From a virus: a stretch of 64,000 nt of DNA. Location of the stretch: positions 1-64,000 of the IMG/VR virus record IMGVR_UViG_3300025327_000717; one strand, 5' to 3'. Shown piece by piece: positions 23,002-64,000 of the stretch (position 1 is its first letter; every line of letters begins with the position of its first letter). Position numbers and translations under genes: made by a program. The notes below the pieces were generated by a model. That model saw only the letters and a list, made by a program, of their open reading frames with translations, did no database searches and was not told the origin of the DNA.

Positions 23002-23029
23002 TTCGCTCCTTCCCCCTAGGCCTCGGCGA

Positions 23030-44714: not shown

Positions 44715-44746
44715 GAGCATACCATCGTGTCACCATCGTGTATGCT
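44715..44746. promoter_or_regulatory. overlapping divergent promoters
   Basis: AGCATA-CCATCGTGTCACCATCGTG-TATGCT; TATGCT -10 box on both strands; rtcB appears leaderless. Confidence 0.6.
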
Positions 44747-44752
44747 TTCGTC

Positions 44753-46841: not shown

Positions 46842-47342
46842 ATGATATATGCTATTGGCATGGACAGGTTCAAAAGGACAGAAGACCCCGCCACCTTCTT
46901 TTCACTCATAAGCCCTGACGGGTGCTGGGAGTGGTCGGGGGCCAGGGACAAAAACGGCTATGGACAGACCAAGATTGGGATGCGTTCTGTGAAGGCTCAT
47001 CGCAAAATCTGGGCCATGCTCTATGGGGGTATCCCCGAAGGTCTTATGATCCTCCATCACTGTGACAACCCGCCATGCGTCAGGCCTAACCACCTGTTCT
47101 TGGGGACTGCGAAGACCAATCGGCAGGACGCAGCATCCAAAGGACACATCCCACCCCCTATACATCTCCGTCAAGTCGGCGAGAACAACCCAAGCGCCAA
47201 ACTAACGGCTGATGATGTCAGGGACATCAGGGCACGCTATGCGACGGGGACCATCAGTCAAAAAACACTTGGTGAAGAGTTCGGTCTAGAACAAGCCTCT
47301 GTCTCACACATCATCCATCGCAAGTCATGGAAGCATATCTAG
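46842..47342 (+). CDS. HNH homing endonuclease with C-terminal HTH
   Basis: CWEW...GYG...AHR...HHCDNPPCVRPNHL...GE.N..AKLT; lower GC than neighbours. Confidence 0.92.
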   Translation: MIYAIGMDRFKRTEDPATFFSLISPDGCWEWSGARDKNGYGQTKIGMRSVKAHRKIWAMLYGGIPEGLMILHHCDNPPCVRPNHLFLGTAKTNRQDAASKGHIPPPIHLRQVGENNPSAKLTADDVRDIRARYATGTISQKTLGEEFGLEQASVSHIIHRKSWKHI

Positions 47343-47350
47343 GAGGACAG

Positions 47351-48142
47351 ATGAGTCCAGCGAAAGAAGTCATCACGGATGCTCGGTCGCTCGTCTCCAA
47401 GCTCGCTAGGATCGCGAACGCTATCGGTGACAAGGAGCCCATCAGGCACAGCCGAGACATCAAGTTCCCGTATCACGCCGCGCGTGACGTCTACGGCTGG
47501 TGGAGACCGCTCTTGCAGGATGAGGGCATCATCTTGATACCCGATGTGACGAGATGTGATGTGATGCAAGCCACGCTGCCACGCTCCGGTGGGGGGACCC
47601 GCGTCACCTTCCTCACCACCATCCAGGCCTCGTTCACCATCATCGATGGAGCGACGGGAGAGAAGGTCGAGGGGTCTGCTGTCGGTCAGGGCGAGGATCC
47701 TAGCGACAAAGGTGCCGGAAAGGCCATGACCTACGCCGAGAAGGCGTTCTTGCTCGGGATGGGCATGAACGGCTCCGAAAGCGACGTGGAGGCCTACGCC
47801 GACTACGAAGACATCCGCACCTCACGTGAAACACGCGACGTCGTCGTCGAAGACTCCAACATCGAGGGCATCGCCCGGGGTGGGCGCTCTACGAACGCCA
47901 CAGACGTCCAAGTGAAGAGGGTCCGCAATCTTGCAGGCGAACTCGGGTATGGCGTCAACAAGAGTGTGGGGCTCGTGAAGGACGTCCTCGACCTCTCGCC
48001 TCGCCTTCCTGAAGAGCCTGATGATCAGGGTCCCGCGTTCGTCCGCTTCCTCGAGGGCCTGAGCGCAGACGAGATCGGCCGACTCATCCAGTACATGGAG
48101 AAGATGCTGGAGCCCACGCCACGTGACGACAGCGGCTACTAG
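47351..48142 (+). CDS. ERF-family ssDNA annealing protein
   Basis: GQGEDPSDKGAGKAMTYAEK; near exonuclease. Confidence 0.85.
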   Translation: MSPAKEVITDARSLVSKLARIANAIGDKEPIRHSRDIKFPYHAARDVYGWWRPLLQDEGIILIPDVTRCDVMQATLPRSGGGTRVTFLTTIQASFTIIDGATGEKVEGSAVGQGEDPSDKGAGKAMTYAEKAFLLGMGMNGSESDVEAYADYEDIRTSRETRDVVVEDSNIEGIARGGRSTNATDVQVKRVRNLAGELGYGVNKSVGLVKDVLDLSPRLPEEPDDQGPAFVRFLEGLSADEIGRLIQYMEKMLEPTPRDDSGY

Positions 48143-49920: not shown

Positions 49921-50098
49921 TGAGTGGCATCTGGTAGTGCTCTGTGAGTTTCACAACGTCTGGTCGCCCCCGAGCAAGCGGCTTCGCGAGAGCATCAGAG
50001 CGTACCTCGCAGACGCCTACCCAGAGGCGCCTCTCGAAGGTGGCAGCAGCCCTGAACCAGGCATGGCGCTGGACGGCGACCAAGAAGCCGGGACGTAA
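49679..50098 (+). CDS. divergent HNH-like protein
   Basis: LRETVFLRD...C...CSG...LEHV...HLVVLCEFHN. Confidence 0.65.
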   Translation: MPISAHLRETVFLRDARAIWRASEEHIHHHLSFKRFMAQKRSRPLCLVEVLDPSASVKCSGRWTLEHVKDQLRMGKRAPDDEWHLVVLCEFHNVWSPPSKRLRESIRAYLADAYPEAPLEGGSSPEPGMALDGDQEAGT

Positions 50099-50447
50099 CG
50101 AGGGTAGAAGGCTCACAGCCGAGGACCTCGCCAAGGTTTGGCTAGATGACGCCGGACGATGCCGCTACTGCGATATCGATATCCCGCTGATGACCGCTTC
50201 GTTCGATCACGTCGTCCCCCTCTCGAAGCAGGGCCCCCATCTGCCACAAAACCTCGCGGCATGTTGTATCACCTGTCAGCGTTCTAAGTACACCAAGACA
50301 TCCGATGCTTATCAAGAGTTCATGAGACTTCAGGTAGTATGCCCTTGTGGGACCGTCTTCCGACCACGATGGGCTGATTGGGTCAGGGGGTACGGCCACT
50401 ATTGCTCTCGCTCGTGCTCGGGCAGGGCGGGCGGGGGGCTCTCTTGA
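49944..50447 (+). CDS. HNH endonuclease with C-terminal zinc finger
   Basis: CRYC...DHVVPLSKQG...NL..CC.TC; CPCG...YCSRSC. Confidence 0.8.
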   Translation: MSFTTSGRPRASGFARASERTSQTPTQRRLSKVAAALNQAWRWTATKKPGRNEGRRLTAEDLAKVWLDDAGRCRYCDIDIPLMTASFDHVVPLSKQGPHLPQNLAACCITCQRSKYTKTSDAYQEFMRLQVVCPCGTVFRPRWADWVRGYGHYCSRSCSGRAGGGLS

Positions 50448-50884
50448 ACCACGCTTCTGGTCCAAGGTCGTCTGTGACGTCAGGACGAGGTGCTGGAACT
50501 GGACAGGGACTCGGGACCCCAGCGGGTACGGCATCGTCACGATGTACTACCGGAACGTGTGAGCGCATCGAGTCAGCGGACCGCCTAGATGAGAAGCTCC
50601 TCGTCTGCCATCACTGTGATAACCCATCGTGCGTCTCGCCGGACCATCTCTTTCAAGGGACAGATGGAGACAACATGGCCGACCGTGACGTCAAGGGTCG
50701 CGTCGCGCACGGAGAGACACACTACGCAGCCAAGCTCACGAACTCACAGGTCGCCGAGATACGGGGACGCTTCAGGTTTCGCGACCAGGGCCCCGATAGT
50801 GGAGTTGCCCTTGCTCGGGAGTTCAAGGTGACGAAGGCTGCCATATCGAACATCATCCGGGACCGTAGGCGTCTTCATGGCTGA
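50442..50884 (+). pseudogene. frameshifted, internally deleted HNH homing endonuclease
   Basis: RFWSKV...CWNWTG...GYG stops at 50562; VCHHCDNPSCVSPDHL...AKLT continues in another frame; AHR segment missing. Confidence 0.75.
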
Positions 50885-51296
50885 TCGACGGACGAAACGC
50901 CAGAAACTTGAGGCCATGGCGCAACAGCACGTCTCGCCCAACGAGGCCCGCATCGCCCAGCGTCTTCTCACCGAGCAGGACAGCGGACCCATCCCTGATA
51001 ACCCCCATGGTGGGGTCCACTTCACGAAGTGGCGTGGCAGGTGGATACCCTTGTTCACGAGCAACCACTTCGCTGACGATGACGTTCCGCAGGAGCGCAC
51101 AGTCGATGCACGGTCATCGCCCGATACCGTCGTCATCAAGCTCGATGGCGTCGACATCACCTCGGATGTGGTCTTTGCCCAACCCAGATCGCTAGGCCGC
51201 AAGACGAGTCCGAAGAAGGCTTACGACCAGATGACGTTCGAGGAGTTCTGGTATCAGGAGACCGGACACTACCCAGAGTGGAAGATAGACGAGTGA
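50877..51296 (+). CDS. hypothetical protein carrying a 20-aa copy of the tail-protein N-terminus
   Basis: KLEAMAQQHVSPNEARIA; TVVIKLDGVDITSDVVFAQP. Confidence 0.7.
   Translation: MADRRTKRQKLEAMAQQHVSPNEARIAQRLLTEQDSGPIPDNPHGGVHFTKWRGRWIPLFTSNHFADDDVPQERTVDARSSPDTVVIKLDGVDITSDVVFAQPRSLGRKTSPKKAYDQMTFEEFWYQETGHYPEWKIDE
51125..51186 (+). repeat. perfect 62-bp inverted repeat, arm 1
   Basis: Exact reverse complement of 62072-62133. Confidence 0.97.
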
Positions 51297-51802
51297 AGTG
51301 GGGTTTCACGCTCCCTGGACAACCGCCAAGCTGGAACACGGCCTATCGCATCATCACGATGCATGGTCGGCGCGGTGGCTATCAGGCACTCGGCAAGACG
51401 CCAGATGCGAAGCGTTACCAGATCGGCGCCGCCAACATCATCCGTAGCGCCAAGCCATCACGTTGGAAGCCGATCGGGCAACTGCGTATCCACTACTGGC
51501 TCTATCTGGCCCGCGATATGGACTGCGACAACGTCCTGAAGCTCATCAACGATGTCATCCAGACGGCCACAGGAGTCGACGACAAGTGGTTCCTACCGAC
51601 AGTCGAGGAGAAGACGACAGGATGGGGCAAGAAGGCGCGAGTGGAGGTCGTCATCGAGGACCACGAATCGCCCTATGCGGGTCGACCGGCCTCGAGCACT
51701 ACCCCGACTCCCTCCTCGAGTTCATCGGCAGTCTCCCCGCCAACACCGTCCTCTGTCTCAGGGCTCCCGAGAAGCGAGATCCAGGCCTCTTCGAACAGGT
51801 GA
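51293..51802 (+). CDS. rusA: RusA-like Holliday junction resolvase
   Basis: PPSWN, DCDNVLKLINDV, DDKW, RVEV. Confidence 0.85.
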   Translation: MKWGFTLPGQPPSWNTAYRIITMHGRRGGYQALGKTPDAKRYQIGAANIIRSAKPSRWKPIGQLRIHYWLYLARDMDCDNVLKLINDVIQTATGVDDKWFLPTVEEKTTGWGKKARVEVVIEDHESPYAGRPASSTTPTPSSSSSAVSPPTPSSVSGLPRSEIQASSNR

Positions 51803-52089
51803 TGGCCAAGCTGGCCATCAGTCTGTGGCTTGACGTGGAGTGGTTTCGTCCTGACCCGATAGGGGGGAAGGGGGCGACGTTCCTTCGAGATATCGAGTTG
51901 GTGCGCTCGGTCGATCTGGTGTTGGCATACTTCTCCACCACCACGCTGATCGGCGGGACAGCACACGTCGTCGAGAAGGCGATGGACTTGGAGACACCGG
52001 TCTATGCATATGGCTTCACCGGAGATGGCTTTATGCGTGTCGGTGAGCATGATTCGCATGACGCATGGGGTCGATCAGTCCCAGGATAG
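51622..52089 (+). CDS. second SLOG-like protein
   Basis: RIALCGS...RD.ELV...DLVLAYF...GGT.H...A; start uncertain. Confidence 0.7.
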   Translation: MGQEGASGGRHRGPRIALCGSTGLEHYPDSLLEFIGSLPANTVLCLRAPEKRDPGLFEQVMAKLAISLWLDVEWFRPDPIGGKGATFLRDIELVRSVDLVLAYFSTTTLIGGTAHVVEKAMDLETPVYAYGFTGDGFMRVGEHDSHDAWGRSVPG

Positions 52090-52091
52090 AG

Positions 52092-52139
52092 CGCCGGGGG
52101 GCTGACCCGACAAAGGCACTGCTCTATCGCCCCCCGGCG
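52092..52139. terminator. hairpin between convergent transcription units
   Basis: cgccggggggc...gccccccggcg. Confidence 0.5.
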
Positions 52140-52498
52140 GACTTGGTCCTACCATCCGGCCCCCCTGTGTCGAGGGTCGAAATAGACCGCTGTGATTGTC
52201 GCGCATCTGAGAGCATGTTGGCTAGTCGCACCATCTGCTTTGATCGCCAGCCACGTGGATACTTCAGGAAGGCTCGTTTGACCGCTCCATCACGCAGGCG
52301 TCGTACCGGAGCGGTCCATGATGGATCGGAGCGACGGAGCTCATAGCGCCTCTGGCGATCACGTTGGCAGGCTCGACAGACCGGCCACTGCTGACCTGCC
52401 ACATAAAGACCGACGATCTCTGTGGGATGACCCTTTGGGCAAAGGTCCTCATGGACGCTGACGTCATGGGGTGTCCAGTTGCAATACTGGCACCGCAT
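52124..52498 (-). CDS. zinc-finger protein with HNH-associated CxxGH...CRxC module
   Basis: CPKGH...VCRACQRDRQRRY. Confidence 0.6.
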   Translation of the reverse strand: MRCQYCNWTPHDVSVHEDLCPKGHPTEIVGLYVAGQQWPVCRACQRDRQRRYELRRSDPSWTAPVRRLRDGAVKRAFLKYPRGWRSKQMVRLANMLSDARQSQRSISTLDTGGPDGRTKSAGGR

Positions 52499-52501
52499 CT
52501 A

Positions 52502-52891
52502 TCAATACCAAGCGAGCAACTTATCTACGGCCGACACGATGATCGTTCTGGTGTCGGTGACCGAATAACGTTCTGGCTTGGCGTTACGGATGGCTCGGTC
52601 GTTGAGCCATGCCGTCGTATGATCTATCGGCTCAGACAGGATGATCATCCTGTAGGCGACCTCGAACTCCCTCACCGACACTCGGCGTAAACGCCGCATG
52701 GCTTTGGTCATCCGATAGCGCGGCCCGTCTTTATCAGCAAGCCATGACTTGAGCTCCGGACTCCACTGAGGTGCCCCACCAGCATCGAGTGCGACCGAGT
52801 GCATCCGGATCGGGATGTCCTTCGTCCAGTCATCACGAAGGATGACCATCCACTTGGCGGTGTGTTCGACGACATCTGGAGTGATCGGCAT
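52502..52891 (-). CDS. possible transcription regulator (sigma region 4 or antiterminator-like)
   Basis: Helical C-terminus KAMRRL...EFEVAYR...SAVDKL; weak. Confidence 0.4.
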   Translation of the reverse strand: MPITPDVVEHTAKWMVILRDDWTKDIPIRMHSVALDAGGAPQWSPELKSWLADKDGPRYRMTKAMRRLRRVSVREFEVAYRMIILSEPIDHTTAWLNDRAIRNAKPERYSVTDTRTIIVSAVDKLLAWY

Positions 52892-52903
52892 CGATACACG
52901 GTA

Positions 52904-53092
52904 TCAAGTCTGCGGACCATGGTGGCTCTTCTCCTCCCATGCCGCTCGCCGTATAGGATCGGTCGGCACGAGGAGCGCACCACAATCAGGACACTTGGGA
53001 ACCTTGATGCGGGGTGTCTTGAGAGCCCGATGAGCCGTCTCTCGTGGACATCGAGGACAGATGAGGGGGATCCCATATCCCCCGACGGTCAT
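52904..53092 (-). CDS. zinc-ribbon protein
   Basis: CPRC...CPDCG. Confidence 0.6.
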   Translation of the reverse strand: MTVGGYGIPLICPRCPRETAHRALKTPRIKVPKCPDCGALLVPTDPIRRAAWEEKSHHGPQT

Positions 53093-53128
53093 GGCCCCCC
53101 GTTATGGCCGTCCCAGTCCTCCATGCTC

Positions 53129-53512
53129 TTAGCCCTCCGGGACAGGTTGCTGTGGATCTCGCGTCAGAAGCCGCGGGCCACTCTGGGGCCCCCACGATCT
53201 AAGTATCGAGCCTGCGGTCTCGACCACGTAGAGGCCTGCCGCTGCGACACCGATCGAGAGCAGGGCTGGCACGTTGGCGACTGGGATGACGATATTGTCA
53301 GCGAAGTAGCCCGCGAAGAGCAACAGCCAGATGGGGATGACGCGACCCATGATGTGGGTGCGCAAGAAGGCGGCTACGACGTCGAGTTCGAGGGTCTGAT
53401 CGCGGATAGCTGCCGCGACTCCTAGGGCGAAGTCCAAGAGTGGAAGGACGATGACCCAGATAGCCAGTTGCCCCGCTTCTGAGTCGAAGAACGCCTTGAT
53501 GGCTTCCGGCAT
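53129..53512 (-). CDS. holin-like membrane protein
   Basis: About 3 TM segments, LDFALGVAAA; follows lysin. Confidence 0.75.
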   Translation of the reverse strand: MPEAIKAFFDSEAGQLAIWVIVLPLLDFALGVAAAIRDQTLELDVVAAFLRTHIMGRVIPIWLLLFAGYFADNIVIPVANVPALLSIGVAAAGLYVVETAGSILRSWGPQSGPRLLTRDPQQPVPEG

Positions 53513-53524
53513 GACGATATCTCC

Positions 53525-54280
53525 CTATGTACGGCGCACGACGCTCGAGTGGACATATCCCACTTGGCTAGCTGAAGGGACCCAGACACGGAACCATGTC
53601 TTGTTCCCTCCGATGGCCTCGCCTTGTTCGGTGCCACCAGATGTGAGTCGTTGGCGCCCTGCGATCGTGGCGATGACGAACGCCGTGCGGTCAGGATGGA
53701 GTCGTACGTTGGCCTTGATCCTGGCCTCCACCCTCTGGACGCGCATGACCACGGCATAGATGCCACCTGAGAACTGACTCGCGAAGCGCTCGACATACTG
53801 TTCGGCTTCATGGATCGGCCAAGTGATCCAACCTTTGGGGATACCAGGACGTCTGCCATCGTTGAGTGGGTCGCCGACGCGCACTTTGTCCGGCTGGACA
53901 GCCTGATACATGACGCTGTGCAGCCCCTTGAAGTCCTTGTCGCCCTTGAGGTTCTGTGGCAGTGAGTCGTAATCACCGCTCACGACCGCGAAGCGTCCTG
54001 CCTTCAGCATCGAGAGCAGTGCGGGCCAGTGGAGGGCATCGGTGAAGTCGAAGGATTCGACGGGGACACCCAGTCTCTCCATGGCGTTGGTGATGCCGCT
54101 GATCGTCAGCCCACCCTCCATGTCGCCTGTGAGTCGACGGAAGTGCTCTGGGGTGGGGTCCTTCAGGCCTAGCGTGGCCTGGTCGGTAAGCATGGCTCCC
54201 GAAGCGGCACCGCAGTTGGTGGACTGCAGCGGACTGCCAGTGAGTTGCTTCTCGAAGTGCGGCAAGTAAAAACGCATCAC
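53525..54280 (-). CDS. endolysin: C39-like cysteine peptidase plus SH3-like domain
   Basis: Q...NCGAAS (Cys), GLHSV (His), VGDP (Asp); ANVR...WFRV...GYVHSS. Confidence 0.8.
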   Translation of the reverse strand: MMRFYLPHFEKQLTGSPLQSTNCGAASGAMLTDQATLGLKDPTPEHFRRLTGDMEGGLTISGITNAMERLGVPVESFDFTDALHWPALLSMLKAGRFAVVSGDYDSLPQNLKGDKDFKGLHSVMYQAVQPDKVRVGDPLNDGRRPGIPKGWITWPIHEAEQYVERFASQFSGGIYAVVMRVQRVEARIKANVRLHPDRTAFVIATIAGRQRLTSGGTEQGEAIGGNKTWFRVWVPSASQVGYVHSSVVRRT

Positions 54281-54286
54281 ATCCTC

Positions 54287-54415
54287 CTAGCCCATCGGGC
54301 CCGCTGGCCAGCGCCACACCGTGGCGTTCCCGGCAAGCACGGGCGCCACCGCCAGCGCGCCGACGAAGGCCAAGAGGGTGCCGGCGACGCGCGGACCACC
54401 ATAGAATCTCGTCAC
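54287..54415 (-). CDS. small membrane peptide (42 aa)
   Basis: GTGA-coupled; hydrophobic. Confidence 0.45.
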   Translation of the reverse strand: MTRFYGGPRVAGTLLAFVGALAVAPVLAGNATVWRWPAGPMG

Positions 54416-54723
54416 GCTGTCCTCCGTAGCGTCAACTCATCCCACGCCCATGCCGTCACGATGATCGCTGACGCCACCCTCAGGGAGAGGGACACGAACG
54501 ACACCATCACCTCTATGACCGCACCATCCAACGTGAGGAGATGTCGAGCGAAAAGCGTCCAGAGGCCGAGGATCGCGAACATGACCAAAGCCATCTTGGC
54601 TGCGAGTATGTTCGACCGTCCATCCCAGAATCTGACCACCAAGATGACCATCAAGATGATGTGGATGGCGACGAGGATGTTGAGAGACATCAACCCATCG
54701 TTGATCGTGATCAGGTCATCCAT
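54412..54723 (-). CDS. membrane protein
   Basis: About 3 TM segments. Confidence 0.7.
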   Translation of the reverse strand: MDDLITINDGLMSLNILVAIHIILMVILVVRFWDGRSNILAAKMALVMFAILGLWTLFARHLLTLDGAVIEVMVSFVSLSLRVASAIIVTAWAWDELTLRRTA

Positions 54724-54955
54724 CTTTCAGTCTCGCGACCCCGGCTAGCGTGAGAGCGGATGTCGTCAGTGTGGCCAGGAGTGCCACCAAAGTCCCTTCG
54801 CTCAGAGCATAGTCCTTCTGGATGAGCGGAAGCAACACGACCGCGACGATGACGAAGACCATGGTCCCGACGATGACGGCGACCGAGACAGCCCTGATCT
54901 TGGCGAGTAGGCGCTGTTCCTCTGGCGTCGGCTTCGACATGCGTGCTCCGTTCAT
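54716..54955 (-). CDS. membrane protein
   Basis: 2 TM segments. Confidence 0.65.
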   Translation of the reverse strand: MNGARMSKPTPEEQRLLAKIRAVSVAVIVGTMVFVIVAVVLLPLIQKDYALSEGTLVALLATLTTSALTLAGVARLKDG

Positions 54956-55060
54956 GGTCTTGTCTGCGAGCGGCGCACTGCACCTCACCCATATCGATGA
55001 CAACCCCCGGTCTTGGTGGCCGACCTCCTGCTTTCTATCTATACCAGCCATCCAGCCGAT

Positions 55061-55744
55061 CTAGGCTTTGATGATACGGATGTATCCGGGCATGTAGTTA
55101 CCCGCCCCGCCTGCCCCGGCCTGGATAGTTCCGTTGGAGTCCGCTCGCCATGCGCGCCATGAGTAGGTGTGCGCCGCAGCCGATGGTGTCAGGCGCACCG
55201 TGATGAGCCCCGCGGTGCGCCCGCTCGACTGAGTAAGCTGCGCCGTGATGCCAAGAGCAGTCGAGCCGTCGAACAGGTCGATGAGCACACTGGCGGTGCC
55301 GCTGCCCGTCACGATGTAAGGCGCCCACAACTCGACGATGATTGCGGTGCTGCCGTTGAACGTGATCTCTGCCGCCGTGACGATCACGTCGGCCCCCGCC
55401 TCGGTCGTCGCCGAGACGGCGACTGGCGAAGTGAACTCGACGTAGCTGTATTCACGGCCTGGCGCGATCTCCGCGATCGCCTGTGCCAGCCCAGCCGCCG
55501 TGAGGACCGCGTCGATGGCGGCTCCGTCGTCATGGGTGGCAGGTGTCGTTCCCTCTGCTCCTCGTTGGACCGTCAGGGTATTCGTAGCTCGTGAGGTAAC
55601 GAGCATGAGTTCGTCGTCAACCTTGACGCGGAAGTTACCTGACGATGGGAAGACAGCACCAGAGGCGACATCCACCCCTGTCTCGTTGTCATCGAGAGGC
55701 TCCGCGAGTGTCGTGTGGCCAAAGTTAGCGAGCTGCTCTGTCAT
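55061..55744 (-). CDS. minor tail or fibre protein
   Basis: TTL...VASGAVFP...DDE...LTVQRGAEGT...H; beta-rich C-terminus. Confidence 0.75.
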   Translation of the reverse strand: MTEQLANFGHTTLAEPLDDNETGVDVASGAVFPSSGNFRVKVDDELMLVTSRATNTLTVQRGAEGTTPATHDDGAAIDAVLTAAGLAQAIAEIAPGREYSYVEFTSPVAVSATTEAGADVIVTAAEITFNGSTAIIVELWAPYIVTGSGTASVLIDLFDGSTALGITAQLTQSSGRTAGLITVRLTPSAAAHTYSWRAWRADSNGTIQAGAGGAGNYMPGYIRIIKA

Positions 55745-56355
55745 GTCGTATCTCCGAGGGTATCGTCACCCAGTGTGATCTCGCCGAGGTTGCTTCGTGC
55801 CTCACTATCGCCTATCACAGCATCGATCGTGAAGGAACCCATCAAGGTATCAGTGAGGATGGCTTCGATGCTGAAACTCTTGCCCAAAAGCCAAGCATCG
55901 ACCGTCAGTGAACCACTTGTAAGAGCGCGGATGATCGCATCCGCGGAAGCCGACCCACTGATCACTCTCTTGGCGATGGCATCTACTGTGAGGAGGCCTG
56001 ACAGCGTCCTCTTCGCGACGGCACTGGCTGTGAAAGAACCTATCTGGCCGATCCTGATGATGCTGTCGACCGTGAAGGATCCAGGCACGGTGTCACTTTC
56101 AAGCCACGCGTCGATGACCCAAGATTCCAGGCGGGTACGCATGATGATGGCGCTCGCCGAGAACGAGCCGCTGATCCGGTAGGTGTTCTCAAGTACGGAC
56201 AGTCTGGAGTCGAGGATCGTGAGAAGGGCTTCGACCGTCGAGCCGGCAGGTAGGGCTCCGATAGCCTCTGTGAGCTCCACGAACGTCGTTGATAGATCGC
56301 CGAAGTGATGCTCTGTCCCGCGCTCATGTCGATTGCGGTAGGTCGTATGGCTCAT
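55741..56355 (-). CDS. virion protein with 14-aa SFTVDA repeats
   Basis: About 9 repeats, ends LGEITLGDDTLGD. Confidence 0.8.
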   Translation of the reverse strand: MSHTTYRNRHERGTEHHFGDLSTTFVELTEAIGALPAGSTVEALLTILDSRLSVLENTYRISGSFSASAIIMRTRLESWVIDAWLESDTVPGSFTVDSIIRIGQIGSFTASAVAKRTLSGLLTVDAIAKRVISGSASADAIIRALTSGSLTVDAWLLGKSFSIEAILTDTLMGSFTIDAVIGDSEARSNLGEITLGDDTLGDTT

Positions 56356-56810
56356 ACGATGAAGGCGTTGATGGTGAAGATGCCAGCGATGCAGGCATCG
56401 ACAGTGAAGATGCCACCCTTGCTGAGCACAGCATCGACCAGGAACGACCCGGAGAACGTCCTCTTGATGACAGCATCCATGACGATGACCTGGTCGCTGA
56501 TCCACGCGTCGACCGCGAACGTCGCCTTCGTGCGCGTGTAGTCCTCGAGATAGACCAGACGCTGGGCCATGTCTGCCAGCACCCAGTGGATCGGTGTGAA
56601 CGCTTCGTACTTCCCGACCTTCTCCGAGAGGACTACGTAGAGATCGCTCTCTGGTCCGAAGTGATCCCTGACGCGATGATGCTTCCAGCGCTCACCGATG
56701 ATCCATGCGTCGATGGTGAACGAGCGAGCAGTGATGACGGCATCGATGGCGAAGGCGGGCAGCGCCGTCTTGAAGATGACAGCGTCGACGACGAACGAGG
56801 AGGCTGGCAT
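56352..56810 (-). CDS. virion protein with shortened FTVDA repeats
   Basis: Repeats flank an HFG plus coiled-coil segment shared with neighbour. Confidence 0.8.
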   Translation of the reverse strand: MPASSFVVDAVIFKTALPAFAIDAVITARSFTIDAWIIGERWKHHRVRDHFGPESDLYVVLSEKVGKYEAFTPIHWVLADMAQRLVYLEDYTRTKATFAVDAWISDQVIVMDAVIKRTFSGSFLVDAVLSKGGIFTVDACIAGIFTINAFIV

Positions 56811-56811
56811 C

Positions 56812-58401
56812 TCACTCGCTCACGTATCCGATGGCCCACATCTGATCACCCGTTCCTGGCGCGGTGATGAACGTCACCTGCTTGCTCGTCGGGTCATAGG
56901 TGTAATCGATGGTCGGACGCTGGAAGAGGCCGTTGAGGAAGAGGTCGAACTGACCCTGATAGAACGTGTATGGGAACGTGAACGAGGTTCGCGTCCCGTT
57001 GGCGGTCTCATCTGGATAGACGGTCGCGAACGACCCTGCAGGCACGCCAGCGCTTGAGTTATCCACCAAGACGGTCGTTTGGCCGATGGTGCCCTTCTGT
57101 CGCCGCAACGCCCTCCAGAGATGCCGAGAGTCCGAGAACGAGGTCCCGAACTCACCCTCAAAGCGGACATACGTCTGGCCACCAGGATTTTCGGTCGGCA
57201 GGGTCGGGAACGAGACACGGATGCTGCGGCATGGCAGCGTCGTGACCAGTGGGACTCCTGGACTCGGTCCTTGGGTGTAGAGGATGAAGTTCATGAGCAT
57301 ACCCGGGACGACATGTGCGCCGCCAGGGACATCATGGGCGAACCACACTACGTTCATCGTCTCGGTGGGTCGTGAGAGTCCGCCCTCGATGCCTTGTGTC
57401 GGGACAGTCCCTGGCGGGCCGTTGATGATGACGAAGGCGCGGTTTTTCACCGATCCCTGGGTCAGGTAGTTCTCCTGCCCAGCCCGTTCCTCGGCATACT
57501 GCCAGCGCCCATACAGGTTGCGACGGTCGATGGCGGCCTGCTCTCGGTCAGCGGGCTGTAGCCTTCCGTGCCATGTCGCATCCACGGCTGGCGGGTCAGG
57601 ATAGCGAGCGAAGACGATGTCGCCTGCTGGTCCACCGGGATTGCGGATCGAAGAGCCACCCCAGACGAGCGCATCGGTCACGACCTGCTCGAAGTTCTCT
57701 GAGTACTCGCCCTCACGGAAGCCGATGGTCGTGACGCCGTTGGGGTTCGAGTCTGTGAACGCCCACGGCGATAGCAGCGTCTCGTATTCATGGAGATGGA
57801 CCCTGAAGTCGGCGTCGATGTAGTAGATGACCCCACCGTTGTCTGAGAAGTCGTCCATCTGTTCGCGCCATGTCTTGCCCTGTCCGACGAAGAGTCCACC
57901 GTTCTCCTCTGTCCCATACGAGGTCGTGATGACATCACGGAACGTCGCGAAGTCGAGTCCGGCAGGGACGTCGATGAAGTTCTCCATCAGGTACTTGAAG
58001 GCCTCGCTGATGGTGCGCGAGCCAGAGGGCACCTCGAGCGCGCTCGTGGGGTCCGCTGAGTCGTAGAGCACACGCTTATCGAAGAGGATGTTGAAGTCTG
58101 GCCCTGTCAGGATCCACTTCCTCGAACGGACCGCGGACGGCACGGATGTGTCATCTGCGGCGAGGAAGTTGCCACGTCCGATGCGCATGAGATAGCCACC
58201 GAAGAGCGGCATGCTATCGAGATGGAACGCCAGCTTTTCGCCCGCTGTCGGCGAGAAGTTCTGAGAGAGGTCCCGAGCAGCTAGCTTGAACGAACCCTGG
58301 ACAGGGTTGGCCTGACTCGTGAACATCGTCTCCTGATAGACGACACGGTCGCTGATCTCTGTCCCGTCGAGCGTGATGGAGATGTCGGATGGTGTCGCCA
58401 T
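56812..58401 (-). CDS. minor tail (hub-like) protein
   Basis: ITLDG start, YYIDAD, VWG, LFLNGLFQRPTIDY; paralogue of N-terminal half of next gene. Confidence 0.8.
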   Translation of the reverse strand: MATPSDISITLDGTEISDRVVYQETMFTSQANPVQGSFKLAARDLSQNFSPTAGEKLAFHLDSMPLFGGYLMRIGRGNFLAADDTSVPSAVRSRKWILTGPDFNILFDKRVLYDSADPTSALEVPSGSRTISEAFKYLMENFIDVPAGLDFATFRDVITTSYGTEENGGLFVGQGKTWREQMDDFSDNGGVIYYIDADFRVHLHEYETLLSPWAFTDSNPNGVTTIGFREGEYSENFEQVVTDALVWGGSSIRNPGGPAGDIVFARYPDPPAVDATWHGRLQPADREQAAIDRRNLYGRWQYAEERAGQENYLTQGSVKNRAFVIINGPPGTVPTQGIEGGLSRPTETMNVVWFAHDVPGGAHVVPGMLMNFILYTQGPSPGVPLVTTLPCRSIRVSFPTLPTENPGGQTYVRFEGEFGTSFSDSRHLWRALRRQKGTIGQTTVLVDNSSAGVPAGSFATVYPDETANGTRTSFTFPYTFYQGQFDLFLNGLFQRPTIDYTYDPTSKQVTFITAPGTGDQMWAIGYVSE

Positions 58402-61400
58402 CAGGTCACCTTCGTGTAGCCAGCGCTGACCGACCCGTAGCCCACCGTGTCGGCTCCGATGACGATGCCAGCGGCATACGCTTTCAACTCATCGGTGGTG
58501 TAGAGAGTGGGGTAACGATAGAGCGGATCGATGCCCCAGAAGTTGCCGTTCGCGAAGCGTTCGTTGATGTAGATGGCATGAGCGCCTGTGAAGTTGCTGA
58601 GTCGCTTCGAGGCAGGCAGGTTGCTGTAGATGCCTTGCAGGACGGCTCCCTGCCTGGCGTCGATATGCGTGACGAACGCGCTCCAACTCTGGATGCCCCA
58701 GCCATAGAACGTCTCGCCCCAGCCGGCAGACCATGCAGTCTCGACATCGTCCAATCCGCCTCCAGTCGACTGGTCGGACTGGAAGCCACGATGATTGGGT
58801 GGCGTGTTGCGAGGGGTTCCCGCGAACGCCGTGTTCGCTCCTAGCGTATGCCGGTCAAGGGCCATCGCCGAGCAAGCGAAGATCGCGTTGTAGCCGTCCA
58901 TCGGCGTGCCCCAGCCGTACTGGAGTTGTGGAGCCGGGCGATAGACCTCACCACCAGATGAAGTCGGGACACTCCCTGCTCGCGTGTACTTCACGAGCAA
59001 CGATGATGAGATGTCCCTGTCACCAAGGATGCGAAACTCACCGGTCGTCGGGTCTGTCTCGATATAGTCGACGTTCGGTCGCAAGCGGATGCCCTGGAAA
59101 TAGACCACCAGCGAACCCGCAGCGTATGGGTACTGAGTGATGTAGTACTGCGCCCCAGCATGCTCAGCGTTGTCATAGATAGGGATGTTGGTGACAAGTT
59201 GTCCCGTCCCACCGCCACCACTGGATGAGGCCACGGCGGTCGGAAGGGCGTCCCAGACAGCATCAGCAGCCCAGCCGCGAGGCGCCACGATGACGCCACC
59301 CGTGGCTCCGTCGATCTCCAGCAGCACGGGTGAGTCGAAGAAATCGGGACTTCCATGGAACTCAGACCCAGCTACGGAGGCCTTCCCAGAGAAGGCTGCC
59401 ATCGAAGCCCCGGTATACGTGAAGGCCGGCGCCAGCGTCCAAAGAGCGGCGCCATCAGGACTATAACCACCGTACTGACCGGAGCCCGAATACACGATGA
59501 TGTTGCCTGTGGACTCATCGACACCGACACCATCGGCGATGGCCTGAGAAGCACCAGACGTCTTGGTGACGATATTCTTGATGAACGTCATGGTCGACCC
59601 GTCCCACTCGTCCAAGTACCACGTCGATGCTTCCCGTCGGATTAAGTAGAACTTTCCTCGGTCCGGATGGGTGACAAGCCGAAACGATCGGGTGGAGGTC
59701 GAGAACACCGAAACGTCAGCCGTAGCTTGTGGTCCACCAGTCGGTCCGTATCGGTGGACTTGATAGAAACCAGTGACCGTTACGCCGGTCCGGGCTATCG
59801 GGCGCGACACCATGTAGTACGTGTCACCTGGCCCCTTGGCGAGCCCAGCATAGAAACTGCGATCGTGGAAGAACTCCTCTGTAGTGATCAGCCACTCAGT
59901 AGTCGGATCATCGAGATCTTCCCAGATCGCGCTCGCAGCAGTCGTGTGATCGACGGTGATGCCGCCAGGAGACGCCATCCTTATGTTCGAGTCATCCGAG
60001 ATGTCGAACCACTCGCCACTCGCATGCTGTCCGACCAAGGATGCGTCAGCGCCCTCTATCGGACAGTCGACGGAATAGGCAGGGATAGAACCACTGCCTG
60101 TATATCCAGGAAGGGTAGTGAAGTCGAAGATTTGGACAGTGTCGGCGTTTCCGAACTCGATCTTCGCTCGGATCCCATACTGGTCGAGCCTGGGCCCGAC
60201 CCCCACCCACTCACGTTGTTCGAAACCGTTCACACCAGCGCTAGGATCCCACAACCATAAGGGCCATACGCCAACGGTGAACCCGTAATACCGCCAGGGG
60301 CTCTCGTTGTAGGCGTTGATGCGATAACCGCTACCAACTAGATAGTTGTATGGAGAAGCTGGCGGCGTGTTCGGCCAATAACCATAACTTGTTTCCACGT
60401 GCCCAAGCCCGGAATCCGGACCCGTCAAGAGTTCACGGAAGAACATGACAGAGCCGGTCCCGGGATCCAACTGGAGCAGGTTGCCATCCCCACCCCAGAA
60501 CAGGTAAAGGTATCCGTCAGCGAGCACCATCTGCCCATCGCCAGAGAAGAAACTTTGGCTCATGAACGTGGTCCAGAGTGGAGTCCCATCGGGAGAATAC
60601 TTATGGATACCTACCCATGAACTATCCCAACCCGCTGAGGCGACCTGGGCAAAAGAGTTGACGTATAAGCCAGTGGCGTCAGCCGCCGCGCTCCACACCT
60701 CCAGCTCCTCTGTCGCAGGGAACGGTCCCGAAGGATAGGGATCATCGTCAGGGTGTCGATAAGTGCCGACCGCACCAAGCATGTCGTCGTTCATCAACAG
60801 ATTCCATGTGGGCGGTCCATCGTCTGCAAAGGCGGAGATGAAGGCCCTGTCTCCAGCGGACTGGGCATAGAGCCCCTCGAACGTTGGTCCGTTCGCCCCA
60901 TCGCTGAAGAACGTGCCCAAGACATAGGTCATCGGTGACGCCCCACCGATGCCACCAGGCCCCTCGGGCGGGATGGTCTCTGAGATATCGAAGGGGGACG
61001 GAAAAGCGAACTTCCACAGGTCGGGAACGCCGAAGGGTGTATCGACCCGAAGCGTCAGTTCGATGTCCCAGCGCGGTTCTGTCGGGGTGAGGAACGTGAT
61101 GGTCGATGAACGGACGGGCAAGTCCTCTTGGTAGTCGAACGTCGTCATGCGAAAGTCGACGACGTGCCCGACCCGGATGCCCGGGGTGAAGAGACTGCAG
61201 GTCACGACCGGGACTGGATCGTTATGACCACGCCGATGGCTTGGTGAGCCCTCGACATACGTGCGAGCACGGCGGTTGACAGTCTGTTGCTTCCACGCAC
61301 CGACGTAGACCTCTCCGTACTGCCAGAGTCCATGCAGTGCCACGCGATCGGTGTCGGTGTACTTCGCGAAGACAGGGTCCGCAGAACCCAACCCGGCGCC

Positions 61401-62138
61401 CCAGATGAGGGCTTCGTTGCCAGCGTCGGTGTAGTCTCTCGCGGCCTCAGCCTCGCGGTAGCCGACCTGACCTGCAGTGGGGGCATCGGAGAGGACGAAC
61501 GGCGCTGTGACGGTCCTGTCATCGATGTAGCGGAGGACGCGGTCCGGGTCGATGTAGAAGACGGCTCCCGTGATCTTCGCGGCGTCATCGAAGAGCACTC
61601 CTAGCGGGGCGCTGACGTACCCCAGCGTGAACTCCTCGAAAGGGCCCGGAGAGGCGACTTGCTCGATGCCTGACTCGATGTCCAAATCATCGCCAGAGAG
61701 ATCGACGTAGTTGTTCAGGGCGAAGTCGATGGCCTGCTTGTCAGACGTGTCCGTGGGCCAGATCGTGAAGCCCTCGTTATTGGCAGGGTCGTCGATCCGA
61801 TACATGAAACGCTTCTGGAAGAGGATGTTCCGGTCGTAACCCTCGATGATCCAGAAGCGCGGCACGGTGACTGGCTGTGAGGTGTCGTCGACCGGCAGCG
61901 GCCATGCACGCCGGACCTTGAACGCCCAGCCATCCCACTCGCGCTGTCCATCGATGAACAGCTCGAGCGTCATCCCGGTTCGGATGTCGTCAGGGGTGTA
62001 AGCCTGCTGCTCATCATCGATGAGGACGACAGCCGTCCCGGGCTGCCCGTCAGCAAGACCCCTGAAGTTGGTGGGTTGGGCAAAGACCACATCCGAGGTG
62101 ATGTCGACGCCATCGAGCTTGATGACGACGGTAGCCAT
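58401..62138 (-). CDS. large tail protein: hub domain, beta-propeller-like middle, C39-like C-terminal domain
   Basis: Follows tape measure; FYIDPD, IWG; C-terminus aligns with endolysin. Confidence 0.85.
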   Translation of the reverse strand: MATVVIKLDGVDITSDVVFAQPTNFRGLADGQPGTAVVLIDDEQQAYTPDDIRTGMTLELFIDGQREWDGWAFKVRRAWPLPVDDTSQPVTVPRFWIIEGYDRNILFQKRFMYRIDDPANNEGFTIWPTDTSDKQAIDFALNNYVDLSGDDLDIESGIEQVASPGPFEEFTLGYVSAPLGVLFDDAAKITGAVFYIDPDRVLRYIDDRTVTAPFVLSDAPTAGQVGYREAEAARDYTDAGNEALIWGAGLGSADPVFAKYTDTDRVALHGLWQYGEVYVGAWKQQTVNRRARTYVEGSPSHRRGHNDPVPVVTCSLFTPGIRVGHVVDFRMTTFDYQEDLPVRSSTITFLTPTEPRWDIELTLRVDTPFGVPDLWKFAFPSPFDISETIPPEGPGGIGGASPMTYVLGTFFSDGANGPTFEGLYAQSAGDRAFISAFADDGPPTWNLLMNDDMLGAVGTYRHPDDDPYPSGPFPATEELEVWSAAADATGLYVNSFAQVASAGWDSSWVGIHKYSPDGTPLWTTFMSQSFFSGDGQMVLADGYLYLFWGGDGNLLQLDPGTGSVMFFRELLTGPDSGLGHVETSYGYWPNTPPASPYNYLVGSGYRINAYNESPWRYYGFTVGVWPLWLWDPSAGVNGFEQREWVGVGPRLDQYGIRAKIEFGNADTVQIFDFTTLPGYTGSGSIPAYSVDCPIEGADASLVGQHASGEWFDISDDSNIRMASPGGITVDHTTAASAIWEDLDDPTTEWLITTEEFFHDRSFYAGLAKGPGDTYYMVSRPIARTGVTVTGFYQVHRYGPTGGPQATADVSVFSTSTRSFRLVTHPDRGKFYLIRREASTWYLDEWDGSTMTFIKNIVTKTSGASQAIADGVGVDESTGNIIVYSGSGQYGGYSPDGAALWTLAPAFTYTGASMAAFSGKASVAGSEFHGSPDFFDSPVLLEIDGATGGVIVAPRGWAADAVWDALPTAVASSSGGGGTGQLVTNIPIYDNAEHAGAQYYITQYPYAAGSLVVYFQGIRLRPNVDYIETDPTTGEFRILGDRDISSSLLVKYTRAGSVPTSSGGEVYRPAPQLQYGWGTPMDGYNAIFACSAMALDRHTLGANTAFAGTPRNTPPNHRGFQSDQSTGGGLDDVETAWSAGWGETFYGWGIQSWSAFVTHIDARQGAVLQGIYSNLPASKRLSNFTGAHAIYINERFANGNFWGIDPLYRYPTLYTTDELKAYAAGIVIGADTVGYGSVSAGYTKVT
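62072..62133 (-). repeat. perfect 62-bp inverted repeat, arm 2
   Basis: Exact reverse complement of 51125-51186. Confidence 0.97.
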
Positions 62139-64000
62139 CAGCCCACCAGCATCGCGACTTCGTCGTGAAGCGCTCGCACCACCTTGCGGACCATACGGTC
62201 CTCGTCAGCCTCGCCGCGTACATCGGCCTTCACGTTGACGTTGATGTTGATGGGACTGCCACCACCACGTCCGAGACCACCAGGGGCTCCGTTCATACGT
62301 GGGTTGCGCATGACGACGACAGCCTCGTTCCCGATCTCACCTGCGAGGAAGCTGGTCGGTCGAGAGACCAGGTCGATCCCGCCAGAAGCACGACGCTTCC
62401 CTCTCTCGACGAATAGCGGCAGATCTTCATCTAGCGTGCCTCGTCCGACGTTGCTGCCAGTACGCGGTTGTGCTGTCCCTTGCTTCTCTGCGAGCCCCAC
62501 GATGGGCAAGACAGGCTCGAGTCCGTGTAGCCATCCAGTGACGTAGGTATCGAGCGCCTTGAGGCTGATCTCGGTGACCCTTCCAAGACGCTGCTCGAGT
62601 GTCTCGGCGATACGGATGGACCCTTGACGTGCAGCCACGCCCATGTCACGAGCGAGGTCGAGGGCAGCCTGCTTGACCTGCAGCAACTGCTCTTTCGCTT
62701 CGATGACCTTCTGGATGCCTCTGACCTCGATGGTCACAGCACGTGCCCGCTGGAGCAGTCCGAGCTGCTTCACAGCATCAGTCAACTGACGACCGAACCC
62801 GATGTCTTCGATGCGGAAGCCACGCTGAGCCGTGCGTTTACCGATGTCGAGTTCACGCTGCTGCTCGCGCACGAGCAACTCGGCCTCACGTCGGCGGACT
62901 GCCCGCTCTTCTGGCGTCTCACCCGGAGAGCGCAGTCGAGACAGGGAGAGTTGCAGGTTCAACTCGCGCTGTGAGCGCGCCAACTGGATACGCGTGAGTT
63001 CGCGGCCATCGTTGATCTGGGCACGCTGCAGTTCACCAAGCTGTGTGGCCCCGACGACTTGGTCGCCGATCGATACGGCCTGTCGCTGGTTCAGAGCGAC
63101 GAGGTCTCCGATGGAGCGGACGCTGATGCGGATCTGCTCGTTGTACTGAGCTTGCTCGAGGCCGAGTTGCAAGTCTTCAGCATCCGTTCGCAAGGCCGTG
63201 ATGGATGCACCCAACTTGGCGACACTCTGGATAGCAACATCGGGGACACCAAGATTCCGGAGTTCGGTCAGGCCTTCATCTCGGATGTCGGCGAGCGCAT
63301 CGCGCGAGCGCGTGATGGCGCCTTCGTACTTGCCAGCGGCCGCAGCGGCAATCGGGTCGACACCACTCGTGGCCGTGATGCCTGTCATAGCGTTGGTCGG
63401 GAAGGGGCGCGCGATGAGTTGCTCTGCTGCAGCCGCAGGGATGAGTTCGCGCTGCAACTCGAACTGGCGGGCCTGGGCCCGGAAGGATGCTTCCATCTGT
63501 CGACGACTCACTGTCAACAACTGGTTGACATCTGGCGTGGTCGCCCCTCGGCCACCCAACTCAAGCAGACGATTCAACTCCATGCCAGTGAGTTGACGGT
63601 CACCGGGACCAAGCGCCGCGACACCAGCACCAGCCCAAGCCTCCCGGACCTCCCGACTGGCTCCGATGTCGCTCAACGCCTTCGTCGATCTCTCGATGAG
63701 ACTCGCATCTGTGGTCGTGATCAGTCGTCCGGGACTCAACTCACCGTTGAACTTGACCCAACGATCGACACCCTCGTTGAACGAAGCAACAGCCTTGCCT
63801 GTCAGGGCGTTTGCTGAGGCAGCAGCCCGCTGCTGCCTTTCGATCATGTCTGTCAGGCCAAGGAGTTGCTCGTTCCGTGGAGCGCGGCCGAAAGCGATGT
63901 CCTCAGCGTTCTGGACTGTCTCAAGCCACTGCGTCAGGGGGTCCTTGACAGCAGGCGCGATCGTCGTGGCTGCGACCGCTGAAACAGGATTACCGAACGT
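62138..64000 (-). CDS. tape measure protein, C-terminal part (open to right edge)
   Basis: Frame open from 64000; coiled-coil; ASGG...PT..LAGE.G.EAV and ININVNV tail motifs. Confidence 0.85.
   Translation of the reverse strand, partial: TFGNPVSAVAATTIAPAVKDPLTQWLETVQNAEDIAFGRAPRNEQLLGLTDMIERQQRAAASANALTGKAVASFNEGVDRWVKFNGELSPGRLITTTDASLIERSTKALSDIGASREVREAWAGAGVAALGPGDRQLTGMELNRLLELGGRGATTPDVNQLLTVSRRQMEASFRAQARQFELQRELIPAAAAEQLIARPFPTNAMTGITATSGVDPIAAAAAGKYEGAITRSRDALADIRDEGLTELRNLGVPDVAIQSVAKLGASITALRTDAEDLQLGLEQAQYNEQIRISVRSIGDLVALNQRQAVSIGDQVVGATQLGELQRAQINDGRELTRIQLARSQRELNLQLSLSRLRSPGETPEERAVRRREAELLVREQQRELDIGKRTAQRGFRIEDIGFGRQLTDAVKQLGLLQRARAVTIEVRGIQKVIEAKEQLLQVKQAALDLARDMGVAARQGSIRIAETLEQRLGRVTEISLKALDTYVTGWLHGLEPVLPIVGLAEKQGTAQPRTGSNVGRGTLDEDLPLFVERGKRRASGGIDLVSRPTSFLAGEIGNEAVVVMRNPRMNGAPGGLGRGGGSPININVNVKADVRGEADEDRMVRKVVRALHDEVAMLVG

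Follow-up and report, generated by a model that had tools for sequence, protein, structure and literature searches.

Probable recent copying of the 5' end of a baseplate-hub gene into a small accessory gene of a metagenome-assembled phage

The inverted repeat and the two genes that share it

The IMG/VR virus record IMGVR_UViG_3300025327_000717 is the metagenome-assembled sequence of an uncultured soil phage, 72,953 bases long and classed as linear and 88% complete. Bases 1-64000 of this record (the window; G+C about 60%) carry a perfect inverted repeat, through which the start of a baseplate-hub gene recurs inside a small accessory gene 10.9 kb away. Positions 51125-51186 on the plus strand are the exact reverse complement of 62072-62133 (62/62 bases). 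The arms mismatch directly outside both ends, the base before the repeat being A in one context and C in the other and the base after it G and C; a preliminary description of this DNA had reported the same repeat with the same sharp edges. The pair is the longest of 39 inverted pairs in the window (the runner-up spans 31 bases at 74% identity), and the 62-mer is present in two copies only in the whole record. Each copy is made up of one ambiguous base, 20 whole codons (51126-51185 in arm 1) and another ambiguous base, and each of these edge bases fits donor and recipient alike. Both arms are read in sense and the donor's codon phase is kept, with residues 3-22 of the 1245-residue hub protein (P0002) equal to residues 84-103 of the 139-residue small protein (P0001), as had also been described. 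The spacer between the arms (51187..62071) is 10,885 bases long. The RNA structure of the arms and of both their contexts is unremarkable (z -0.9 to -1.6), there is no other templated patch of at least 14 bases near the insertion site besides the repeat itself, and the phage GenBank collection gave no DNA match to 49900-52200 or 61000-63000. The features that bear directly on the repeat are as follows.

50877..51296, plus strand: recipient gene P0001, 139 residues, with a basic, conserved N-terminal part followed by a C-terminal linker that is hypervariable
51125..51186, plus strand: arm 1, the inserted copy, absent from P0003 (the closest allele) and from P0004-P0006
51187..62071: block between the arms, which would invert on recombination between them
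51213..51230, plus strand: four base differences, including a 3-base insertion, relative to the related locus L003; the rest of the 3' end of the gene is identical
56812..58401, minus strand: paralogue of the hub N-terminal domain, 529 residues (BLASTP 27% identity, E 1e-26)
58401..62138, minus strand: baseplate hub / tail-associated protein P0002, 1245 residues, assigned from a structure model and Foldseek
62072..62133, minus strand: arm 2, the native donor, hub codons 3-22, an N-terminal motif conserved in the hub family
62138..64000, minus strand: 3' part of a 1587-residue gene (62138..66901 in the full record), the presumed tape measure by size and position

The identity of the donor was established from its predicted structure. 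An AlphaFold2 model of P0002 residues 1-380, built with 35 aligned sequences, has a predicted local distance difference test score (pLDDT) of 90.5. In Foldseek it matches 74 PDB chains at E<=0.001 (best E 4e-17), including contractile-injection-system hubs, Mu gp44, T4 gp27, VgrG, and siphophage tail-associated proteins. The model confirms P0002 as a gp27-like baseplate hub, with the hub fold predicted in the N-terminal approximately 380 residues. In this model the copied residues form the first strand (residues 4-8) and the turn and short helix after it. Most of the 52 homologues found with residues 1-380 open with this N-terminal motif or carry it after a short extension, and a 31-position motif model made from 35 hub homologues detects the hub gene and the gene that follows it in the loci of relatives. 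The start of the hub gene overlaps the stop of the 1587-residue gene upstream of it by one base; the latter has no family match and is presumed to encode the tape measure from its length and position only.

The paralogue at 56812..58401 has its own diverged N-terminal motif, which scores 39 bits with the motif model. The pairing of hub and paralogue recurs as open reading frames (ORFs) 3-4 kb past the hub start in L005, L007, L010-L015, L017, and L018, and because of this recurrence these phages are judged, from their sequences, to carry two gp27-like proteins in tandem. Hub homologues P0033, P0034, and P0051 have a predicted hydrophobic, signal-peptide-like extension of 25-40 residues ahead of the motif, and longer N-terminal extensions are present in P0055, P0056, P0062, P0065, P0066, P0071, P0072, and P0080. 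These extensions may be start-codon miscalls or real additions.

The recipient P0001 (G+C at third codon positions 0.74) has no Pfam or PHROG match, its Atlas model is of low confidence (pLDDT 0.51), and an Atlas search with residues 1-83 gave no usable feature match and structural neighbours that all have TM scores below 0.5. Its start is overlapped by 8 bases by a probable HNH endonuclease gene (50378..50884).

Direction, age and reality of the insertion

The preliminary description had proposed checking whether homologues of the small gene lack the 20-residue stretch, and they do, a weak hint in one other family member (P0020, treated below) apart. The nearest allele, P0003 (118 residues), is without exactly the 20 inserted residues, an empty site known from comparing the two as proteins. 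The 113 matched residues are equal, and the differences amount to five substitutions and a one-residue indel, all of them at most 13 codons from the insertion site, i.e., within a 26-codon zone; residues 1-70 and the last 22 of P0001 are identical in P0003. The arithmetic of this clustering, (26/118)^5 or about 5e-4, refers to a window picked after the data were seen. The DNA comparison with L003 gives four changes in 18 bases (51213-51230), followed by more than 100 identical bases. All four homologues of near length (P0003, P0004, P0005, and P0006) are without the insert, and the stretch is present in none of five IMG/VR genes of the family (0/5). The insertion point falls in the linker that follows the conserved N-terminal part and precedes a short basic motif, also conserved, close to the C-terminus; this linker varies in length and sequence throughout the family.

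A scan with the hub motif model covered 27 sequences, namely P0001, P0006, 23 of the 25 matches of an exhaustive protein search (the two longest were omitted), and two cluster mates. Only P0001, P0007, and, weakly, P0020 scored; the other 24 reached at most 1 bit. None of the proteins longer than 244 residues that share words with P0001 scored. IMG/VR scans with P0001, the 62-mer, and P0020 gave no usable locus, and the metagenome scan yielded L003 only. Since the motif is a trait of the hub family and the small-gene family is without it, these comparisons make the hub gene the donor and mark the 51-kb arm as an insertion of 60 bases. For annotation, the match of the 139-residue protein to tail proteins reflects a pasted fragment and not homology.

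The relative age of the copy can be read from the nearest hub alleles. The two closest public ones, P0029 (1243/1245 residues identical to P0002) and P0031 (96% identical over the N-terminal part), both have, compared with the hub of the window, Ala instead of Ser at position 15 and Ser instead of Gly at position 27. Because the Ser15 codon of the window is also present in the inserted copy, the copying, or the last homogenisation of the two copies, is younger than a substitution by which two 99.8%-identical alleles differ. Positions 15 and 27, one inside the arm and the other five codons beyond it, are also the sole differences between P0002 and P0029, the remaining 1218 residues past these being identical; they could reflect a small conversion patch or local selection at the N-terminus.

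Among 18 IMG/VR hub loci (31-58% identity), none has a long-range inverted repeat of at least 28 bases, the only two inverted matches being local palindromes. One syntenic relative has the same convergent layout, with 14.3 kb from the small gene to the hub start (from coordinates); between these two places its best match is 12 bases and there is no repeat. This pattern fits a recent event and not a maintained device. The preliminary description had allowed for either; the shared Ser15 codon and the empty site in relatives favour a recent copy, and the result for the hub loci (0/18) speaks against a maintained one.

An assembly or library artefact as the source of the 51-kb copy, which had been listed as an option, would be in keeping with the record being a metagenome-assembled contig, with the tendency of repeats to confuse assemblers, and with the possibility that the runs holding the phage best are the source sample. 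A total of 20 listed runs from soil, sediment, and groundwater contain this phage, three of them with half or more of the sampled words; no RNA run is among the 20. Against an artefact, P0001 with its insert occurs letter for letter on 9 contigs from three sources (JGI/IMG, ENA, and MetaClust). Logan contigs assembled at k=31 from runs X1 and X2 also match from 50400 to 51154 with zero mismatches and end 30 bases inside the arm, and at the other arm the Logan contigs likewise break off after 30 bases, with ends at 62101 and starts at 62104, as a k=31 graph must at a 62-base repeat. These junctions, the left one of arm 1 included, are thereby shown to be present in the reads, and an X4 contig carries the right junction of arm 1. 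X1 and X2 are possibly source samples, and they provide independence of assembler, not of sample. A graph error cannot yield a clean 20-codon insert that is correct on both sides without real junction k-mers, and an artefact is very unlikely as the source of the insertion. No contig from X1-X4 has the 60-base empty site, in a type of assembly that drops rare variants.

The same runs hold other versions of the locus. In X1 and X2, contigs of a co-occurring relative share only the last approximately 100 bases of the HNH gene and the first 67 of P0001 and then diverge (50780-50943), and a break at 51227 in these runs coincides with the point where the L003-type allele turns identical to the window. 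Several mosaic alleles of the P0001 gene seem to coexist in one sample. A Logan contig from X3 was first taken for a third copy of the repeat and was rejected as such, since it matches only 33 arm bases (62099-62131) and its flanks of 64 and 77 bases are unrelated. The stretch is open in the frame of the hub and has a high third-position G+C, and the 33-base match is too long for chance; the in-frame reading of the contig may resemble a cellular ATPase gene.

Recombination between the arms and a second candidate capture

The two arms lie in different operons. An early/recombination operon on the plus strand, with genes for SSB, RadC, a ParB-like protein, RlaP, RtcB, a PD-(D/E)XK nuclease, an HNH_3 endonuclease, ERF, and two HNH-type proteins ahead of P0001, meets a late structural operon on the minus strand head-on near 52.1 kb. 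The late operon includes terminase (14644..16077) and portal (13042..14454), runs across the contig ends to the major head protein and an adaptor, and continues with the 1587-residue gene, the hub, its paralogue, fibre-like genes, and a weak holin candidate. A promoter and terminator scan of 50000-53000 returned 0 sites. The ERF and RecB-like nuclease genes that the preliminary description had placed nearby are both present among the genes for recombination and DNA cleavage.

38053..38541, plus strand: SSB, upstream of the recombination module
46080..46841, plus strand: PD-(D/E)XK nuclease, first gene of the recombination module (46080..48142)
46842..47342, plus strand: HNH_3 endonuclease, in the recombination module
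47327..48142, plus strand: ERF single-strand annealing protein (24.6 bits, against a Pfam cut-off of 25)
49944..50447, plus strand: second HNH endonuclease gene, tandem upstream (Pfam HNH_5 and HNH above cut-off; PHROG 2118, E 2e-15)
50378..50884, plus strand: probable HNH (His-Me finger) endonuclease gene (PHROG 59, E 4e-16; Pfam HNH_3 22.5 bits, cut-off 24.8)
51278..51802, plus strand: RusA-like Holliday-junction resolvase, overlapping the end of P0001 (Pfam RusA 29.5 bits; PHROG 34, E 3e-11)
52124..52498, minus strand: HNH-like gene at the operon convergence (PHROG 826, E 5e-9; no Pfam match)

Recombination between the arms would invert 51187-62071, a block that holds RusA, the operon convergence, the HNH-like gene, the weak holin candidate, the tail-fibre-like genes, the hub paralogue, and the hub from codon 23. 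Judged from the reading frames, all genes stay in sense on inversion, because the arms lie in two operons converging near 52.1 kb, and both predicted chimaeras are in frame. In the inverted form the early/middle operon would continue from P0001 residues 1-83 through the 20 shared residues into the hub (residue 23 onwards), with the tail and lysis genes following. The late operon would lead to a 58-residue ORF (Met-Ala, the 20 residues, and the last 36 of P0001), followed by RusA. In phage annealing-protein systems, rare recombination at 62 identical bases would be likely.

The exhaustive protein search found exactly the predicted 58-residue chimaera, P0007, which is 100% identical to P0001 over residues 84-139 and lies on one JGI/IMG contig of 1773 bases. 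Only the hub gene context can account for the Met-Ala start of P0007. Inversion may therefore occur, with P0007 either a candidate product or the outcome of a path that the assembler took through the repeat. A search among proteins of 76-244, 245-2000, and 684-2179 residues did not find the reciprocal chimaera. A contig from X4 that joins 51187 to 62072 on opposite strands through 62 shared letters, at a depth of about 3.6, was considered as evidence of inversion and rejected. An inversion through a 62-base repeat makes no new 31-mers and leaves the same k=31 graph, so this joint is uninformative and reflects only which branches dropped out at that depth.

These observations bear on the proposal that the repeat works as a flip-flop needing no recombinase of its own, in which the phage nuclease, ERF, SSB, and RusA, or host machinery, would invert the 10.9-kb block and swap the distal ends of the operons. 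The hub fused to the first 83 codons of P0001 would then belong to the early/middle operon and the 58-residue chimaera and RusA to the late operon, and the population would hold both isomers as bet-hedging or as a timing switch. The in-frame chimaeras, the presence of P0007 in exactly the predicted form, the recombination genes, and the convergent layout that keeps genes in sense are all consistent with it, and hub homologues with N-terminal extensions (P0033, P0034, P0051, P0056, and P0072) indicate that an extended hub need not be dead. Conversely, the repeat is found in 0/18 loci of relatives and not in the syntenic relative, the reciprocal chimaera was not found among proteins of 76-2179 residues, P0007 lies on a short contig that may reflect the route of the assembler across the repeat, and the X4 joint carries no information at k=31. 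Inversion would also uncouple the hub from the gene that overlaps it and put the likely lysis genes behind early genes, which would presumably be harmful. We consider such a switch unlikely. Of the earlier suggestion of a switch without a dedicated invertase, the in-frame chimaeras stand, one of them being on record as P0007, and an operating switch is left neither demonstrated nor dismissed.

Known invertible systems offer a partial parallel. Mu (G/Gin) and P1 (C/Cin) have invertible tail-fibre segments under serine-invertase control, as the available text of a recent report also relates (10.64898/2026.02.14.705889). As in these switches, inverted repeats here flank a block of tail genes, and inversion would give alternative in-frame fusions. 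Unlike in Mu and P1, there is no invertase, one arm lies in a non-tail gene, and relatives do not share the arrangement. Inversion would here change the N-terminus of the hub, whereas in Mu and P1 it affects the C-terminal receptor-binding part of the fibre; the arms occupy hub codons 3-22 and the small gene and not alternative 3' parts of a fibre gene. The 72,953 bases of the record gave 0 matches to serine recombinase (Pfam Resolvase, PF00239), which a control search found in 12/14 genomes, and 0 matches to tyrosine recombinase (Phage_integrase, PF00589), found in 14/14 control genomes. Since the record is estimated to be 88% complete, a serine recombinase could be encoded in its missing part. 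The locus does not look like a diversity-generating retroelement, with no RVT_1 (PF00078) in the same 72,953 bases and arms that are 100% identical, where a template and variable repeat would differ at adenines.

A closer parallel comes from Anabaena cyanophages of the A-1(L) group, for which the available text of the same report describes an approximately 30-kb block between inverted repeats, with both isomers in stocks and possibly no dedicated recombinase (10.64898/2026.02.14.705889). The likeness lies in a large, multi-kilobase block bounded by inverted repeats in a tailed phage, possibly acted on by general recombination, and it lends the flip-flop some support. The cyanophage repeats are described there as 400-700 nucleotides long, at a conserved place in nine related phages, and validated by polymerase chain reaction and read mapping. 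The repeat described here is 62 nucleotides long, belongs to one lineage with no counterpart at the same place in related phages (0/18), and is known from sequence alone. If the recombinant form is true, a 62-base repeat would suffice for genome isomers in the wild without an invertase.

The second lead concerns P0020, a 64-residue protein on a 10,702-base JGI contig from another lineage. It has the N-terminus and the basic motif of the small-gene family and ends in approximately 15 residues that align to hub profile positions 6-20 (hhalign E 0.0013, with a probability of only 19%). Its motif-model score is 8.8 bits (E 0.002 among 27 sequences), and its end residues are unlike those of the P0001 insert and stand at another place in the protein. 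As a background, 4261 stop-to-stop ORFs of the genome and 19 loci were scored. The 30 best scores (at least 11.5 bits) fall at the hub gene or the next ORF, or at the hub, paralogue, or P0001 ORF of the window, as judged by position, and the next best score is 7.0 bits. No background ORF outside the hub genes, the paralogues, and the P0001 ORF thus reached the score of P0020, which may represent a second, independent capture as far as such alignments can tell.

P0020 also touches on the idea that the copied stretch acts as a protein mimic. While the tail tip is being assembled, P0001 would use the first beta-strand and turn of the hub to bind the partner of the hub N-terminus; it might work as a decoy, resemble a chaperone in function, or be directed as a weapon at co-infecting relatives. 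Such a mimic would be in keeping with a copy that is read in sense and keeps the frame of the donor, with the presence of the motif at the head of two tail proteins (hub and paralogue) in this phage and in relatives, and with the motif-like stretch that closes P0020, a protein of another lineage, at a position unlike that in P0001. In the hub model, however, residues 4-8 are the first strand of a folded domain and not a free docking peptide, and the pLDDT of the P0001 Atlas model (0.51) gives this idea no help. Besides P0001 and P0007, 24 of the 25 scanned sequences are without the stretch, as are 5/5 IMG/VR genes, and perfect DNA identity points to recency and not to a long-selected mimic. 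We regard a mimic as quite improbable; for the tail-assembly decoy suggested earlier, the sole support is the weak hint from P0020. It is because of the P0020 lead that both the decoy and the switch are kept under consideration at all. A working flip-flop that re-times the tail-tip and lysis genes and produces an N-extended hub, together with small genes that repeatedly capture hub starts (P0001 and P0020) for links or mimicry, would be the most far-reaching outcome and is an unlikely one.

Origin of the copy and its surroundings

Taken together, the evidence is best accounted for by a very recent ectopic copy, in which 60 bases (20 codons) of the 5' end of the hub gene probably entered the variable linker of the small accessory gene. 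A break or a stalled fork would have occurred at the recipient site, in a stretch crowded with HNH genes and inside the recombination module of the phage. Another part of the phage genome would then have supplied a short stretch, either as template for synthesis or as a captured fragment, with at most one base of homology per junction, and the copy would have been inverted on the DNA, so that it reads in sense on the coding strand of the recipient. The insert would be tolerated by the protein, and perhaps neutral, because the family is freely variable in this region. The 62-base inverted repeat would be a by-product, long enough to serve as a substrate for the annealing and recombination enzymes of the phage. 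Occasional inversion of the 10.9-kb block, with its two in-frame chimaeras, would be an expected side effect and not a designed switch.

Several observations fit this route. Each junction has just a single base in common with the donor context, so the copy did not come about by homologous recombination. A short ectopic copy with hardly any homology at its junctions and with point changes around it is the signature described for template switching or fragment capture in the course of break repair. Breaks at the site are plausible because four HNH-type genes lie within 6 kb, two of them directly upstream. A template-switching scar had been among the earlier proposals and is the best supported of them, given that P0003 is without exactly the 20 residues, that the tail copy is native, and that no relative has the repeat. 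A there-and-back double inversion was also considered as the origin and was rejected, since it would not leave an arm at both ends. No Ku was found on the contig.

The four HNH-type genes (46842-47342, 49944-50447, and 50378-50884 on the plus strand and 52124-52498 on the minus strand) are of at least two domain types, and the matching place in L003 (1987..2472) holds a different HNH type. These genes allow a selected version of the ectopic-copy explanation, in which a neighbouring HNH endonuclease cuts the empty site and the insert and substitutions, made by mutagenic repair, were kept because they destroy that site. Two HNH genes directly upstream and one 0.9 kb downstream, the tight clustering of the P0003 differences around the site, and the different HNH types at this position in L003, as expected of mobile endonuclease genes, are consistent with such immunity. 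Homing endonuclease genes are also reported at phage recombination boundaries in the available text of one study (PMC10055350). On the other side, no cleavage site is known and nothing links these HNH proteins to this target, and this version is unlikely.

Some points weigh against a recent accidental copy as we have described it. One base of homology per junction is the level expected by chance and indicates no particular repair route. Sense orientation in the phase of the donor would arise by chance about 1 time in 6, which is mildly unexpected for a pure scar. The clustered changes may belong to a freely varying linker, in which P0004-P0006 differ too, and the empty-site allele P0003 was compared as protein, a comparison from which the exact junction and synonymous differences are not read off. 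P0007, a recombinant ORF in a public assembly, is not predicted by a silent scar unless it is an assembly path or an occasional recombinant. Finally, an independent capture in P0020 would lower the likelihood of pure accident, and the process would then have a preferred donor and recipient, or the stretch would be useful.

Under the favoured reading of a recent ectopic copy, the event belongs with templated or captured insertions (microhomology-mediated break-induced replication and 'filler DNA'), which the available text of the relevant papers describes mostly from yeast and human cells (PMC8421209, PMC11724301, PMC3678771). As characterised there, such insertions are stretches of tens of bases identical to a donor in the same genome, possibly inverted, with zero to a few junction bases and nearby point changes. 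Here the native donor is identical, the empty site is present in close relatives at the protein level, and little junction homology is accompanied by clustered changes. The event differs from the yeast and human cases in its phage genome, in the 10.9 kb that separate donor and insert, and in the insert itself, which is exactly 20 codons long, in frame within a coding gene, and next to HNH genes. The surroundings also recall phage mosaicism, which is described, in the available text of two papers, as driven by phage recombinases and homing endonucleases (PMC2327257, PMC10055350). The nuclease/annealing pair, the many HNH genes, and the sharp patchwork of identical and diverged sequence around the P0001 gene are alike; the event differs from mosaicism in having taken place within one genome, from the hub gene to an accessory gene, and not between phages.

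The feature is thus real and unusually clean, and the kind of event is a known one. It offers a clean natural example of a short ectopic copy for which public data reveal the donor, the recipient, the empty site, and the relative age, at a site in a region crowded with endonuclease and recombination genes. New inverted repeats in phage genomes could plausibly arise from such copies and lead in turn to large inversions and gene fusions.

Other parts of the window carry features of separate interest. In the early region, an RlaP gene of the RNA-repair-pathway polymerase-beta family (40706-41422) and an RtcB-type RNA ligase gene (44738-45934), both on the plus strand, may form a phage RNA-repair pair, possibly countering host cleavage of tRNA or mRNA. 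In the late operon, a glycosyltransferase-like gene (6373-7185) and a nucleotide-sugar epimerase gene (8981-9904), on the minus strand, lie between the portal gene and a gene (1226-5533, minus strand) for a 1435-residue protein built of dozens of diverged 42-base (14-residue) repeats. The sole family match of this repeat protein is a weak PHROG of unknown function at its C-terminus, and a similar 42-base periodicity is present in the fibre-like genes at 55.8-56.8 kb. A motif of 23-49 bases occurs 6-7 times at the starts of small minus-strand genes (21369-21417, 22807-22837, 22998-23028, 23744-23766, 23964-24012, and 25095-25143). Read on the minus strand, it has a strong ribosome-binding-like GGAGG core, suggesting that it may be a shared translation-start or regulatory element.

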